64,000 nt of DNA from Candidatus Latescibacterota bacterium (GTDB taxonomy: Bacteria; Latescibacterota; UBA2968; UBA8231). The position numbers were made by a program, and so were the translations under genes. Below, one piece after another: positions 8,405 to 11,671 of the stretch. The stretch is taken from positions 2,432,001-2,496,000 of the forward strand of contig OZ242214.1 of NCBI GenBank assembly GCA_965206595.1. The letters are read 5' to 3'. The notes below the pieces were generated by a model, which saw nothing but the letters and a program-made list of their open reading frames with translations, was not told the origin of the DNA and searched no databases. Each line of letters starts with the position of its first letter. Position 1 is the first letter of the stretch.

Positions 8405-8743
8405 TCAGACGCACTTGCATTTCGGTGAAACCTTAGGTGGGTGATAACAATAACCCGAGCAACCGTTGTGGAACCCGCACCAGTAGTTACACGCCGCGCT
8501 GGAATAACACCCTGACCAGTGGAGAACCCCACTGCAATGCGCGGAGGCCTGGGGAGGTGACCCCAAAACGACCATTGCGGCGACGAGCAGGCCCCCGGTC
8601 CAAGCGACCGGAAACCCCTGCTTTGCGCTGACTTCCCCGGATTCGCTCCGGACGAACTCAGCGATGAACCCGCTCCCAAGAGCGGAACCAGCGGCCTCAA
8701 CGAGGCCTTGTGCGACCCCTATGGCCGCATTCAAGATATGCAT
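8405..8743 (-). CDS. 112-aa precursor: Flp-pilin-like leader, hydrophobic helix and 8-Cys defensin-like C-terminal peptide
   Basis: GAGGA RBS 7 nt before ATG 8743; EFVRSESG|EVSAK; GGLLVAAMVVLG; ASA|HCSGVLHWSGCYSSAACNYWCGFHNGCSGYCYHPPKVSPKCKCV. Confidence 0.75.
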   Translation of the reverse strand: MHILNAAIGVAQGLVEAAGSALGSGFIAEFVRSESGEVSAKQGFPVAWTGGLLVAAMVVLGSPPQASAHCSGVLHWSGCYSSAACNYWCGFHNGCSGYCYHPPKVSPKCKCV

Positions 8744-8855
8744 TTTTTCATCCTCATCGGATAAAGGTTTTTCAACGATGCCTCCCCTTCCCCACCCCTT
8801 GAAACTTCGCGCAGCCACCTGCGCGTCGATAGCGGCCTCACCCTCCTTTCTTCCG

Positions 8856-9929
8856 TTATCCCCCTCTCAGCCATATGCCGAGGTCAATCAAGGGGGGCGC
8901 CAGGTTGCCGGCGAACACCGCGGTCAGCAGCGCCCCGGCGACGATGAATGGGACGAACGGGAAGCCTTGTTCCCGCTCGATGGAACTTTTCTCCGGCAGC
9001 CCGGGGTTTCCCAACTTCCGCAGGTGGTTCGCCTGCTTCTTCGACAACGGCTGGCCCGCCTCGCAGACCACTATTCCGTCCGCGGCCTCCAGCTCCAGGC
9101 GGTGCCGGGGCACGTCCCCGTCCCGGACTTCCTCTGCCGAAACCGTGCGCACCAGGGCGCGCCCGTACTGGAAGCGCACCTGCAGGTAAACCACTTCGAG
9201 CACCCAGAGGGCCCCCAGCATCAGCACGTAGGTCTGCCAGGCCCCGGTGGTATGGGACAGGTAGAGCAAGGCGGCGATCCCCGGAGGAAGGATCACGGTC
9301 CAGTACTTCTCTTCCAGTCCCCGATCGAGCAGGCGGTAGCCGACCACCAAGGCCGCCAGCGCTTCGAGGTAACTGAGCGGGCGCTGCAGCACCAGCCAGG
9401 CGAAAGCCAGGGCGAGACCCAGAAGCCCGGCCAAGCCCCAGGCGGCCTGCAACCACTGTCTTCCACCGGGACGGGCGGCCTGCGATCTGCCTTCTTCTTT
9501 GGGCTCGCGTCGCCACAGCGGCACCAGCAGCAGCACGAGCAGGTAGCAGATCAGACTGTTCAGGATCAGGGCGAACGGGGCAGCCTGCATGGCCAGCGGT
9601 TCGGGCGACGGGCACAGGCTCGGCGGAAGGGCAACCACCGCGGCCCAGAACAGCTTGGCGTCTCCCGGGGCCCAGAAGCCGAACAGGGTCAGCCCCACGG
9701 CCACCGCCAAGCCGATCCCGAGCAAGGCGGCGACGCGGCCGAAGGTGGTCACGTCGAGGCCCACCATGACCGCCTGCCCGACCAGCCCGATCCCGAGAAG
9801 GGTCAGGGTGTAGCGGTTGGGCACCCACCTCGCCTTCAGGTCGGTGCAACTGGTGTAGAAGCCGGCCGTCAGCAGGCTGGCGAGCATGGCCGTCTCGACG
9901 AGAAAGACCGGGTCGGTGAACAGGTTCAT
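8856..9929 (-). CDS. A24-family (type IV prepilin / preflagellin-type) aspartic peptidase with long C-terminal extension
   Basis: Catalytic Asp motifs TDLKARWVPN and PGDAKL; multiple TM helices; C-terminal GFPFVPFIVAG. Confidence 0.85.
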   Translation of the reverse strand: MNLFTDPVFLVETAMLASLLTAGFYTSCTDLKARWVPNRYTLTLLGIGLVGQAVMVGLDVTTFGRVAALLGIGLAVAVGLTLFGFWAPGDAKLFWAAVVALPPSLCPSPEPLAMQAAPFALILNSLICYLLVLLLVPLWRREPKEEGRSQAARPGGRQWLQAAWGLAGLLGLALAFAWLVLQRPLSYLEALAALVVGYRLLDRGLEEKYWTVILPPGIAALLYLSHTTGAWQTYVLMLGALWVLEVVYLQVRFQYGRALVRTVSAEEVRDGDVPRHRLELEAADGIVVCEAGQPLSKKQANHLRKLGNPGLPEKSSIEREQGFPFVPFIVAGALLTAVFAGNLAPPLIDLGIWLRGG

Positions 9930-10525
9930 CGGCTCCCCTTCCGCCCGAGGGCGTCGGCGACCAGGGTCCCTACCAGCTTGGCTCCCTCCGGCTCCCCGAC
10001 GCCGGAACCGGCCACCTTGCCCTCGGCGTCGAGCAGGTAGGTCGTGGGCACGCCGCTGGTCCGGTAGGCGTCGAAGGTGCTGCCGTCGGCATCCACCAAC
10101 ACCGGAAACTGGGTTGCCAGTTCGGCCTGCAGCTCGGCCTCTTCCTGCGTCGGCTCCCGGCCTGTGTCGCCCCCGCGTTGGATGAACAGCATGCGTTTGC
10201 CCAGGTCGGGCAGTCCCTCGTCCAGGACGGTGCGCATAAGCTGGCGGCTGTACGGACAGGAGAAGCTGACGAACACGGCGGCCGACGATTCCCCTTTGAG
10301 ATCTTCCAGGCTGACGGTCCTCTCCCCGGCCGCATCCGAAAGCTCGAAGCCGGGGGCAGGCGCGCCCCGGGAGAGCAGGGCGGTCCCTTCATCGACCACG
10401 CGCAGGAGCAGGGAGGACTGAAGGTCCCGGTCCTCGGGCGGTTCTCCGGTCGCCAGGGCCGCGATCAACCCCAGCGCCAGCGCGCCTCCGGCCAGCACCG
10501 GCTTGAGAGCGTTGCGATCCATCAT
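9926..10525 (-). CDS. Membrane-anchored thioredoxin-fold (TlpA/ResA-like) protein, CxxS
   Basis: N-terminal TM, APGFELSD, SLEDLKG, FSCPYS, GVPTTYLLDAEGKV; ATGA overlap with the upstream gene. Confidence 0.85.
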   Translation of the reverse strand: MMDRNALKPVLAGGALALGLIAALATGEPPEDRDLQSSLLLRVVDEGTALLSRGAPAPGFELSDAAGERTVSLEDLKGESSAAVFVSFSCPYSRQLMRTVLDEGLPDLGKRMLFIQRGGDTGREPTQEEAELQAELATQFPVLVDADGSTFDAYRTSGVPTTYLLDAEGKVAGSGVGEPEGAKLVGTLVADALGRKGSR

Positions 10526-11067
10526 CCCCTTCCTCCCTCCGATTCGTTCCAGGCCGCCAGGACTTCGGTGATGCTGCGGCTGCCGGTGGCGGCGTGGCGG
10601 ACCACCCCGCGCCGGTCGATGAGCAGGGCGCTGGGCACCCCGCGCACGTCGTAGAGCCGATGCACCGCCTGCCCTTGGTCGTGTCCGATTGCCAGAGTGA
10701 CCTCTCCGATGTGGGCCTGCACCAGGTCCGGGTCGCCCGCGGCGACGGCGACGATGGGCAGCACTTCGGCCGCCTTGGCCACCGCCGGGTAGGCGGCCTT
10801 GCAGGCCCCGCACGCGGCGTCGGTGAAGTAGAGCAGCCAGGCATCGGCCCCCCGGGCGCTGGCCAGAGACACGGTTGCCCCGCCAAGGCCGGGCAGCGTG
10901 AAGTCCGGCGCCTGCCGGCCCAGCAGGTGGGCGAATGGCTTGGGCGGCAGGCCTGGCGGAGCCCCGGTTTCCAGGCGCGCGCCGATGCCGATGCACAGGG
11001 CCAGCAGCAAGCCGACGGCCGCGGACACCGCCTTTACCATGGGATTCATCCCGGAAGGATCAGCCAT
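10522..11067 (-). CDS. Membrane-anchored thioredoxin-fold (TlpA/ResA-like) protein, CxxC
   Basis: N-terminal TM, APDFTLP, LYFTDAACGAC, GVPSALLIDRRGVVR. Confidence 0.85.
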   Translation of the reverse strand: MADPSGMNPMVKAVSAAVGLLLALCIGIGARLETGAPPGLPPKPFAHLLGRQAPDFTLPGLGGATVSLASARGADAWLLYFTDAACGACKAAYPAVAKAAEVLPIVAVAAGDPDLVQAHIGEVTLAIGHDQGQAVHRLYDVRGVPSALLIDRRGVVRHAATGSRSITEVLAAWNESEGGRG

Positions 11068-11671
11068 TTCCTTTGCTTTCGGTTGGCGGTCTCGAGGCGA
11101 ACCAGGAACGCAGCCCGCGCAGCTCTTTCAGCATGGCCCCGACCGTCAGCGTTGCCCCGCTGATGCCATCCAGGTCTTTGCCGACCCGCAACGAATCGCC
11201 CAGGGAGGTCCCTTTCAGTTGGGACAGGAACGCGTCCGGATCGAAGAAGCCGCCCTCCTTCTCCCAGGCTTCCAGGGGCGCAACCCCGGCTATCTCTTGC
11301 GTCGAGGGGGTCAGGTAGACCGCGGCCAGCAGGTCGCGGCAGGTGCTGCAGGCGATGTCGTGGCGCACCAGGGCCAGGGCGTAGACCGGGCGGCCGTTGT
11401 CGGAGACCCGGTAGAGCTGCAGCAGGCCGGAGCGGGGCAGGGGACGGGCTTCGTGGATCAACCGGAGGTCGATGGAAGCGAGCGCAGAGTCGAACTGTCG
11501 GGTGGTGGCGAGGAGCTGTGTCGCGGAGGGGAGCGCCGGAAGCGCGGGAGCGAAGTGGCGGGCGCGGGCTTCGGAGTAGAAGTGAAGGAGGGCGGCGACT
11601 CCGCCGGTCAGGCCCAGGATCAGGCCGCAGGATATCAGTACTGCAGGCTTGCGGGAGGTCATGCCTTCCAA
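11060..11671 (-). CDS. Extracytoplasmic FMN-binding (flavinylation-motif) protein with CxxC
   Basis: N-terminal TM, IACSTCRD, and LDGISGAT, which matches the ApbE target motif DxxSGAT of RnfG/NqrC-type domains. Confidence 0.8.
   Translation of the reverse strand: MEGMTSRKPAVLISCGLILGLTGGVAALLHFYSEARARHFAPALPALPSATQLLATTRQFDSALASIDLRLIHEARPLPRSGLLQLYRVSDNGRPVYALALVRHDIACSTCRDLLAAVYLTPSTQEIAGVAPLEAWEKEGGFFDPDAFLSQLKGTSLGDSLRVGKDLDGISGATLTVGAMLKELRGLRSWFASRPPTESKGNG

Follow-up and report, generated by a model that had tools for sequence, protein, structure and literature searches.

On the minus strand of a 64,000-nucleotide stretch of the genome of a Candidatus Latescibacterota bacterium (GenBank assembly GCA_965206595.1, contig OZ242214.1, positions 2,432,001 to 2,496,000; hereafter the window, by which we always mean this whole stretch) lies a cassette of five genes, running from position 11671 to position 8405. 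They encode, in order, a flavin mononucleotide (FMN)-binding protein, two thioredoxin-like proteins (redoxins 1 and 2), an aspartyl membrane peptidase of the A24 (prepilin peptidase) family and a small open reading frame (ORF) that we read as a peptide precursor. Our interpretation, which we hold with moderate confidence, is that this multi-copy cassette, prone to insertion sequences (IS), makes exported, disulfide-rich and hypervariable peptides with a defensin-like Cys framework. A chance neighbourhood is ruled against by the recurrence of the genes as both paralogous and orthologous cassettes.

Cassette layout

The genes, and the parts of the precursor, are listed below. Residue numbers are those of the proteins of the window unless another locus is named.

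11060-11671, minus strand: FMN-binding protein with CxxC, membrane-anchored and predicted to be extracytoplasmic (203 aa; C-S-T-C motif, D-G-I-S-G-A-T)
10522-11067, minus strand: redoxin 1, TlpA/ResA-like, with an N-terminal anchor (181 aa; active site C-G-A-C)
9926-10525, minus strand: redoxin 2, TlpA/ResA-like, with an N-terminal anchor, monothiol (199 aa; active site C-P-Y-S)
8856-9929, minus strand: FlaK-type A24 (GxGD) aspartyl membrane peptidase (357 aa; PF01478)
8405-8743, minus strand: precursor gene (112 aa and stop codon; variable N-terminus, leader, hydrophobic segment, A-x-A and a 44-aa core with 8 Cys)
8636-8656, minus strand: leader motif F30-V-R-S-E-S-G36, the proposed site of A24 recognition or cleavage (alignment A2)
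8561-8614, minus strand: hydrophobic segment, residues 44-61, with K41 and G43 ahead of it (read from the translation)
8540-8548, minus strand: A66-S-A68, a putative signal-peptidase-I-type A-x-A site at the leader/core boundary (alignment A2 and the leader/core split)
8408-8539, minus strand: core peptide, 44 aa, C-x8-C-x5-C-x3-C-x5-C-x3-C-x9-C-x-C (from the sequence)

An earlier reading of this DNA (the original prediction) had described four overlapping minus-strand genes and, about 110 nt downstream of them, a 112-aa ORF with 8 Cys and the leader string F-V-R-S-E-S-G. All of this is present. The overlaps, read from the sequence, are ATGGCTGA (8 nt), ATGA and ATGA, and the four genes are translationally coupled; the precursor start lies 112 nt past the peptidase stop, with a GAGGA Shine-Dalgarno-like site ahead of it, and the leader string occupies residues 30-36.

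Metagenome contigs from four runs in four studies contain the precursor stretch (8300-8747) on single contigs, with 0 differences in all four. In the same runs the enzyme genes are scattered over numerous short contigs that carry variant letters, which is what assembly should produce when it collapses paralogous cassettes. These contigs establish the presence of the DNA, and nothing beyond that.

The cassette recurs within its own genome and in others

The genome that holds the window is a single contig of 7.05 Mb, with a marker-gene completeness of 92.9%. Within it is a second intact cassette (L011) of the same gene order, followed by two genes for CBM9-like proteins, a family to which we return below. 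By tblastn, the enzymes of this second cassette are 79-88% identical to those of the window, and its precursor only 43% (E 3e-20). A third cassette (L010, G000:C1:595591-598719) has the order FMN protein, redoxin, redoxin, A24 peptidase, the last of which stops after 77 residues at a DDE transposase. There is also a remnant (L003, G000:C1:2089831-2092953), consisting of a C-terminal peptidase fragment and a leader ORF devoid of Cys, beside another transposase-like ORF. At these last two loci we see that the cassette has been struck repeatedly by mobile elements.

The peptidase belongs to a discrete family of about 357 aa that comprises 62 clusters, with identities from 92% down to 38%. We compared 27 peptidase loci from species-representative genomes, fetched with the peptidase alignment A1 and mapped by tblastn, a hidden Markov model of the leader and a motif scan. 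The original prediction had staked itself on homologous operons keeping their small ORF, and this they largely do: of the 27 peptidase-seeded loci, 18 have a precursor-like ORF no further than 6 kb away, as do 15 of the 17 that match the peptidase over its full length, although several loci are paralogues or come from near-identical metagenome-assembled genomes, so that the counts overstate independence. Apart from two loci with a full-length peptidase (L016 and L017, weighed below), those that lack a precursor are L027, where the peptidase is in two pieces, L036-L038, which are partial matches at 22-30% identity, and L028, L029 and L032, which hold only an N-terminal peptidase fragment or meet the contig end.

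The order of the genes differs by clade. Besides FMN-redoxin-redoxin-A24-precursor we find FMN-redoxin-redoxin-precursor-CBM9-A24, redoxin-A24-precursor and A24-FMN-redoxin-redoxin-precursor, the last seen at only 32% peptidase identity. That the same gene set is retained through rearranged orders argues for functional coupling of its members.

A similar picture comes from 101 sampled Latescibacterota genomes, of which 10 match the peptidase profile, 13 the precursor profile and 88 neither; all 10 of the peptidase genomes also carry a precursor. It lies directly downstream of the peptidase in G061, G065 (where there are three precursors in tandem), G097, G050 and G087. A precursor is found without the peptidase in G013, G018 and G084, none of the three having a PF01478 match at E<=0.01; G084 is fragmentary. 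A metagenome scan seeded with the narrower precursor alignment A3 returned 276 stretches that fit the pattern, none of which encodes a relative.

Two further observations concern single loci. On the low-coverage contig of L025, the second precursor (4806-5653) appears to be split, its leader and Cys-rich core lying in different frames, which reflects either a sequencing error or a frameshifted copy. On a contig labelled 'uncultured archaeon' (L035), a leader-type ORF (2-208, minus strand; F-L-L-S-E-E-G ...) that runs off the contig end lies near a member of the peptidase family (A24 match 2479-2745).

A conserved leader joined to a hypervariable, cysteine-rich core

Alignment A2 brings together 19 precursors from four phylum-level groups, and its only invariant columns are F30 and G36. 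The sequences follow a common plan, which begins with a variable N-terminus of 0 to about 45 residues, followed by [DE]-F-x-x-[SE]-[ESD]-G and then x-[VI]-x-x-[KR]-x-[GA], and which ends with about 18-20 hydrophobic residues, a Pro/Gly-containing stretch leading to A-x-A, and a core conserved in its Cys only. It is an Ala that closes the conserved block in the aligned precursors; this Ala at -1, a small residue at -3 and a Pro or Gly before them, all kept where conservation ends, have the look of a signal peptidase I site. In the window-like subgroup (alignment A3), G43, A47 and W48 are also invariant. There are three conserved sites of a processing type, namely G36, G/A43 after K or R, and the A-x-A at 66-68, and past G36 the sequence looks to have all the parts of a Sec signal: a basic n-region, then an h-region and, last, a c-region with A-x-A. 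The A-x-A site did not figure in the original prediction, nor did the CBM9-like companions, the radical SAM-linked relatives or the orphan precursors in genomes without an A24 peptidase. Since it falls exactly at the boundary of leader and core, the A24 cut is probably not the sole processing step.

Searched against 1.84 billion cluster representatives (clusters at 50% identity), the A2 profile matches 233 representatives at E<=1e-3 and 37 at E<=1e-10. Leader and Cys statistics were drawn from the best 150 of the 233 matches, analysing the 148 of these that are at most 210 aa long. In 123 of the 148, F/aromatic-x3-[EDSTNQ]-x-G stands just ahead of the hydrophobic segment, at a distance of 8 residues in 78 of the 123. 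Phe occupies G-6 in 107 of the 123 representatives that bear the motif, Glu occupies G-2 in 81, Val G+2 in 83, and Arg or Lys G+5 in 75. Past the hydrophobic segment, the number of Cys is even and at least 4 in 118 of the 148, with a mode of 8 (67 sequences).

When the closest cassettes are compared, identity is 49-100% over the final 45 residues of the leader, 20-39% in the core, where the Cys contribute most of it, and 75-89% between the adjacent peptidases. The two precursors of L013 are identical in 45 of 45 leader residues and 39% identical in the core. A conserved leader joined to a hypervariable core, and encoded beside processing enzymes, is a feature of ribosomally synthesised and post-translationally modified peptides (RiPPs). 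As for changes to the core other than proteolysis, the neighbouring genes point to disulfide chemistry only.

As to the core itself, CxxxC followed later by CxC occurs in 52 of the 126 cores with at least 6 Cys, the core of the window included. A second framework is also common, and the family includes at least two other Cys frameworks besides that of the window. Neither Pfam nor NCBIfam gave a match to the window precursor; the rows returned for other precursors, Myticin (E 0.69), CydX and Phr, are weak and we treated them as noise. In the PDB, the best profile match is the plant 'Defensin-like protein 204', at a non-significant E of 0.25. Judged by sequence, 'defensin-like' seems to us reasonable as a description of the core, as distinct from demonstrated membership.

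A FlaK-type peptidase in an organism without pilus machinery

The peptidase matches PF01478 with an E of 2.3e-8 and 34.8 bits, against a cut-off of 26.5 bits (37.6 bits in the genome scan), and D30 (in T-D-L-K) and D90 (in P-G-D-A-K) occur without exception in the 21 aligned members of the family (alignment A1). In a wide VIA-align search, its AlphaFold2 (AF2) model (predicted local distance difference test, pLDDT, 74) found FlaK (3s0x_B) as the best structural match among 48,161 PDB chains, with Z 12.4, a root-mean-square deviation of 4.6 and 173 of 186 residues aligned; the match covers residues 11-350 of the model, and the next-best row has Z 7.7. Because helical models may score up to Z 13 by chance, we take the match to corroborate the Pfam assignment, not to prove it. 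Against the PDB, Foldseek returned nothing for the model at E<=0.001, and the A1 sequence profile nothing at E<=1 among PDB sequences. Motifs and model together make it most likely that the enzyme is active, as a GxGD protease of the kind found in archaea (FlaK/PibD/EppA). Predicted complexes of the peptidase with precursor residues 20-70 scored 0.12 and 0.28 against a mark of 0.32, which counts neither way.

One stretch of the peptidase stands out in the model. Residues 100-107 (A-L-P-P-x-L-C-P) form a non-helical stretch between helices that is almost invariant, with C106 present in at least 90% of the 21 sequences. By our reading of the topology C106 would face outward, and we may speculate that it could form a mixed disulfide with the CxxS redoxin or with the substrate.

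The original prediction had noted the lack of pilus genes in the 64 kb of the window. The same holds for the whole 7.05-Mb genome, in which we found no T2SSE ATPase (PF00437), no T2SSF platform protein (PF00482), no secretin (PF00263) and, at E<=1, no Flp_Fap (PF04964); the control searches were positive in 13/14, 13/14, 6/14 and 6/14 reference genomes, respectively. Nor are homologous operons part of complete Tad or type IV pilus loci, as far as a T2SSE ATPase can tell, since none was found in any of the five other near-complete genomes that carry the cassette. With ATPase, platform, secretin and Flp all missing from the searches, the usual clients of an A24 peptidase cannot be present. A pilus or pseudopilus was considered as the product and rejected, there being no ATPase, platform or secretin.

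The redox module

All three redox proteins start with a hydrophobic anchor (that of the FMN protein being read from the translation), and they should face outward. In the FMN protein, C108, C111 and G-A-T are invariant in 11 of 11 homologues (alignment A5), as parts of the motifs R-H-D-I-x-C-x-x-C-x-D-L and D-G-x-[ST]-G-A-T, which are found in all 11. The second of these contains [S/T]GA[S/T], the ApbE flavinylation motif as defined in the main text of PMC8238504, and one ApbE gene (E 4e-78) lies elsewhere in the genome.

Redoxin 1 matches AhpC-TSA (E 1.2e-12, 48.3 bits against a cut-off of 26) and Redoxin (1.9e-9), and among NCBIfam families ResA (E 6e-12) and MauD (4e-7), both under their cut-offs; its CxxC is kept in most homologues. 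Redoxin 2 matches AhpC-TSA at E 1.7e-8 (34.9 bits against 26), and its active site is CPYS in the clade of the window, in L026 and in L043, and CPYC or CxYC in other homologues. A search of the genome for DsbB and VKOR found neither; one gene of the DsbD family is present.

A flavin beside a CxxC that feeds thioredoxin-fold partners is the logic of the QSOX and Erv sulfhydryl oxidases. By this analogy we favour a relay that generates disulfides, with the monothiol redoxin as an isomerase or mixed-disulfide partner.

Relatives linked to radical SAM enzymes in other phyla

Distant relatives of the peptidase (27-33% identity) are found in Anaerolineales (L030, L031) and Poribacteria (L033, L034). 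At these loci, small ORFs with a leader of the window type lie within a few kb of the peptidase, and HxsB-like radical S-adenosylmethionine (rSAM)/SPASM and HxsD-like genes take the place of the redox module. The order at L030 (547-11894) is rSAM/SPASM, precursor, a large solute-binding-domain protein, A24, HxsD-like protein, a second large protein and a second precursor; at L033 (1723-11301) there are a c-type cytochrome, a precursor, a transglutaminase-like protein, A24, two rSAM/SPASM enzymes and an aKG-HExxH-type peptide hydroxylase. The locus at L031 spans 1301-9617. Among NCBIfam models, the rSAM enzymes match HxsB best (E 6e-96 and 6e-92, with 322 and 309 bits against a cut-off of 370 bits), and the precursors of these loci match the N-terminal part of HxsA3 with E from 5e-5 to 5e-3, under the cut-off.

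Here the tailoring enzymes are exchanged, redox proteins for radical SAM enzymes, while leader and A24 peptidase stay constant. We regard this comparison as the strongest argument available that the leader is what the peptidase recognises.

The main text of PMC13128918 reports a His-Xaa-Ser (HXS) system as an antiphage defence with a periplasmic effector, HxsA, which undergoes a non-canonical N-terminal cleavage that depends on other Hxs proteins and then reaches the periplasm. The word 'peptidase' does not occur in that main text. PADLOC gave only generic viperin-type rSAM matches for the rSAM enzyme of L030, and no defence family among six proteins of the window.

In passing, the loci at L030, L031 and L033 include solute-binding-domain proteins of about 870-910 aa and an HlyD-like protein, and the cores at the Poribacteria loci are rich in His and Trp and contain no Cys.

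CBM9-like companions, mobile elements and flanking genes

Downstream of the cassette the window contains the following.

8362-8398, no strand assigned: perfect 17-bp hairpin, terminator-like or RNA-stabilising, 7 nt past the precursor stop codon
7255-8199, minus strand: CBM9-like secreted protein (AF2 model, Foldseek)
4570-5472, minus strand: second CBM9-like paralogue, separated from the first copy by an IS66-family element
3711-4202, minus strand: third CBM9-like gene, N-terminal part only, abutting an ISL3 transposase; its translation matches the N-termini of other CBM9-like proteins

Since the hairpin has a T-run only on its plus-strand side, for the minus-strand operon it may serve to stabilise or process RNA, rather than act as a classic terminator.

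The CBM9-like proteins are secreted and about 300 aa long; they contain 0-1 Cys, start with an ordinary signal peptide and share a C-terminal W-x-R-I-K-A-x-L. With the model of the protein at 7255-8199 (AF2, pLDDT 69), Foldseek found CBM9 structures 7nwn (E 1.4e-8) and 1i82 (E 2.9e-7), and a weaker likeness to the DOMON-type, haem-binding gamma subunit of ethylbenzene dehydrogenase (2ivf_C, E 1.3e-3); Pfam CBM9_1 matched the protein only at E 0.046. Paralogues flank the cassettes of L011-L017, L025 and L042, and some peptidase genes are surrounded by tandem arrays with as many as six copies (L016, 1908-5939 and 7152-8057; L017, 193-5939). The array in the window is interrupted by an IS66-family element (5603-7079, plus strand), in which two overlapping frames encode the zinc-finger and DDE parts, and by an ISL3 transposase (2398-3696, minus strand). 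We considered the CBM9-like proteins as the real substrates of the A24 peptidase and rejected the idea: their signals are short, of the Sec type and without the Gly motif, and they contain 0-1 Cys.

An ORF of about 130-150 aa without a Pfam match ends both intact cassette regions (window 1259-1714, minus strand; L011 11659-12054, plus strand), after the CBM9-like genes, and the two share a C-terminal D-R-F-R-R-[ST]-G-E-P. Upstream of the operon are RtcB and an extracytoplasmic function (ECF) sigma factor, neither of which recurs in other loci.

A proposed pathway and its alternatives

The pathway that we propose would run as follows. The precursor would insert N-in/C-out by way of its hydrophobic segment. 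On the cytoplasmic side, the FlaK-type peptidase would recognise F-x3-E-x-G and cleave behind G36 or, with lower probability, behind G43, so that the variable extension at the N-terminus is lost. At the outer end of the helix, the A-x-A would be cut by the cell's housekeeping signal peptidase I, freeing the 44-aa core. Such a release in two steps, inside by the A24 peptidase and outside by signal peptidase I, is our best reading. Outside the membrane, the three anchored redox proteins would build and proofread four disulfides, the FMN/CxxC flavoprotein acting as the disulfide generator in the manner of QSOX or Erv, the CxxC redoxin donating disulfides, and the CxxS redoxin serving as an isomerase or mixed-disulfide partner. 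That no DsbB or VKOR was found would explain why the cassette brings its own oxidant. In this scheme we infer the cleavages, the direction of electron flow, secretion and the biological target; it is the hypervariability of the core, and that only, which suggests an antimicrobial, antiphage or host-directed role.

The original prediction had called this a self-contained maturation pathway for a disulfide-rich ribosomal peptide. The functional link between peptidase, redoxins and precursor, and the architecture of leader and core, are well supported by comparison. 'Self-contained' is too strong, given that CBM9-like proteins travel with the cassette and that ApbE and any electron partner are located elsewhere.

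Several of our results weigh against the pathway, in addition to the limited independence of the loci. Two loci with a full-length peptidase, L016 and L017, have CBM9-like arrays and no precursor within 6 kb, although their genome holds precursors at two other cassettes. Conversely, G013 and G018 are near-complete genomes with one full-leader precursor each and no A24 peptidase at all, and no cassette genes lie within about 5 kb of these orphan precursors (L039, 5106-5459, minus strand, in G018; L040, 4932-5249, minus strand, in G013), whose homologues include the three tandem precursors of G065, a genome of the same genus. There are two possible explanations for the orphans: either maturation is possible without the A24 enzyme, or the copies are relics. 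For export through Sec and signal peptidase I, the conserved A-x-A could be sufficient by itself. The leader, moreover, is not a canonical class III leader, as the hydrophobic segment begins about 8 residues past the Gly and position +5 is Lys or Arg rather than Glu, and Flp_Fap (PF04964) has no match at E<=10 in any of 8 precursors. In the redox module, the FMN protein reaches PF04205 only at E 0.005 and 17.9 bits, under the 22-bit cut-off, and redoxin 1 of L018-L020 has SxxC, its first Cys being absent. Finally, TlpA-type proteins are usually reductants, and the relay could accordingly run in the reducing direction.

The first alternative is that the A24 peptidase trims the N-terminus and the A-x-A stays uncut, leaving a helix-anchored, pilin-like protein with a disulfide-knotted head, displayed at the cell surface or in the periplasm, perhaps with the CBM9-like proteins. 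A short leader ending in Gly, a single hydrophobic helix and a small Cys-containing head do make up a minimal pilin architecture, and CBM9-like genes accompany the cassette in many loci, even in L016 and L017, where the precursor is missing. But the genome of the window has no assembly ATPase, platform or secretin, and a residue pattern befitting signal peptidase I (Ala at -1, a small residue at -3, Pro/Gly before) is kept exactly where conservation stops, making us consider tethered display unlikely.

We are somewhat more doubtful that Sec and signal peptidase I suffice for release, with the A24 protein clearing the long leader remnant as a signal-peptide peptidase, or acting as a regulator. 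GxGD proteases do include signal-peptide peptidases, the region after the motif has a canonical-looking n-h-c form with A-x-A, and orphan precursors occur in genomes without any A24 peptidase. For a clearing function, however, the invariant F and G of the upstream motif would be unnecessary, and leader and peptidase stay paired while all else changes.

A third alternative, which we judge improbable, reverses the chemistry: the redox module would keep the Cys reduced, in the manner of TlpA, ResA or CcmG, and the product would be a metal- or cofactor-binding peptide. The best NCBIfam relatives of the redoxins (ResA, MauD and DsbE, all under cut-off) serve in the maturation of cofactors or subunits, the genome has a DsbD-family protein, and His is frequent in some cores. 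Set against this are the even number of Cys in 118 of 148 precursors, with 8 the mode; two recurring spacings typical of disulfide frameworks, CxxxC...CxC among them; the absence of a DsbD gene from the cassettes; and the pairing of FMN with an invariant CxxC, as in disulfide-generating flavoenzymes. Lastly, it is highly improbable that the small ORF encodes an unremarkable secreted protein and has come to neighbour a redox operon by accident, a view contradicted by paralogous and orthologous cassettes with shuffled gene order and by co-occurrence in 10 of 10 peptidase genomes.

More tentatively, and at what we would put as a little under an even chance, the disulfide pathway may be one part of something larger. 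The A24 enzymes would be the dedicated leader peptidases of an unrecognised superfamily of exported ribosomal peptides, characterised by F-x3-E-x-G, a hydrophobic segment and A-x-A, with a redox branch in Latescibacterota, where a QSOX-like relay of FMN/CxxC protein and thioredoxins would make defensin-like peptides, and a branch with HxsB-type rSAM enzymes in Chloroflexota and Poribacteria. Class III processing would then have been co-opted, in bacteria without filaments, as the entry step of modular peptide pathways. If the HXS antiphage effector is a guide, these peptides may act in the periplasm or after secretion, as effectors of defence or competition.

We found no prepilin peptidase linked to RiPP leaders or to cysteine-rich peptides in the literature searched, most subscription journals lying outside that search. 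The component families are known, and it is their combination that appears to be undescribed there, in keeping with the original prediction, to which no described RiPP class with this gene set was known. What appears to be new is the meeting of a GxGD peptidase in a pilus-less organism, a dedicated FMN/CxxC-plus-two-redoxin module in the absence of DsbB and VKOR, and a large family of hypervariable peptides with 8 Cys that is defined by its leader.

If the proposals above are true, an intramembrane GxGD aspartyl protease would be a new type of leader peptidase in ribosomal peptide biosynthesis, prepilin peptidases would gain a role wholly apart from pili, and there would be flavin-based extracytoplasmic disulfide generation in bacteria without DsbB or VKOR. 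The 233 clusters (at 50% identity), mostly with 8 Cys, would offer disulfide-rich mini-proteins that can be mined with a simple leader profile. A common leader and peptidase would also tie these peptides to His-Xaa-Ser-type systems, one of them antiphage, and so suggest testable ideas about function.

Comparison with known systems

The enzyme is closest to the class III signal peptidases FlaK, PibD and EppA (MEROPS A24B), with which it shares the A24 domain, the two catalytic Asp, the second in G-D, and a FlaK-like fold; the relatives at L030 and L033 match the archaeal A24 C-terminal domain PF06819. In the proposed substrate, too, a short leader at the N-terminus closes with Gly, and a hydrophobic helix follows. 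The differences are that this host has no type IV filament ATPase or platform, that the enzyme has extra helices (357 aa), and that the proposed substrate is hypervariable and Cys-rich, with an additional A-x-A and with the motif about 8 residues before the helix.

The resemblance to TadV/CpaA and their Flp prepilins lies in the leader, which closes with [ED]-x-G and is aromatic or hydrophobic six positions ahead of it, a spacing also found in Flp leaders. Some members of the peptidase family are annotated as 'CpaA' by the Joint Genome Institute (JGI). In contrast to the Tad systems, there is no Flp_Fap match, no conserved Glu at +5 and no Tad gene, and the fold of the window enzyme is of the longer FlaK type.

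A conserved leader followed by a hypervariable core is a pattern that this precursor family has in common with the precursors of bacteriocins and other RiPPs and with animal venom peptides. Cysteine-stabilised alpha-beta (CS-alpha-beta) defensins, which include bacterial defensin-like bacteriocins, resemble cores such as that of the window in their small size, in a CxxxC followed by a C-terminal CxC, and in having 6-8 Cys, whereas there is no significant sequence match, and the spacing after CxxxC in plant defensins is not that of the window core.

With TlpA, ResA, CcmG and MauD, the last of which is needed for a disulfide-rich small subunit, the redoxins have in common an anchor at the N-terminus and a thioredoxin fold (AhpC-TSA/Redoxin type) and, in redoxin 1 of the window, the CxxC of the active site. 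They differ in that all NCBIfam matches of the window redoxins are far under the equivalog cut-offs, in that there are two paralogues per cassette, one of them CxxS here, and in that they are coupled to a flavoprotein, not to DsbD or CcdA.

The HXS systems (HxsA, the rSAM enzymes HxsB and HxsC, and HxsD) are alike in the type of leader and in having distant relatives of the peptidase beside HxsB- and HxsD-like genes. The cassette of the window has no rSAM enzyme among its five genes and its Cys-rich core is without HxS repeats, which places it outside these systems; L030, L031 and L033 approximate to them only, all matches being under the NCBIfam cut-offs.

Finally, the hybrid flavin/thioredoxin systems flavinylated by ApbE (Meheust et al. 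2021, PMC8238504), as presented in the main text of that paper, also have an anchored FMN_bind protein, a family to which ours is a weak match, with [S/T]GA[S/T], as well as ApbE and a thioredoxin-like neighbour. In that main text, 'peptidase' appears only once, in the reference list, and no peptidase-linked cluster is described, although the supplementary cluster tables might contain one. The clusters that it describes involve DsbD/DUF3570/DUF4266 or P19 iron uptake, whereas in our cassette the FMN protein itself bears an invariant CxxC.

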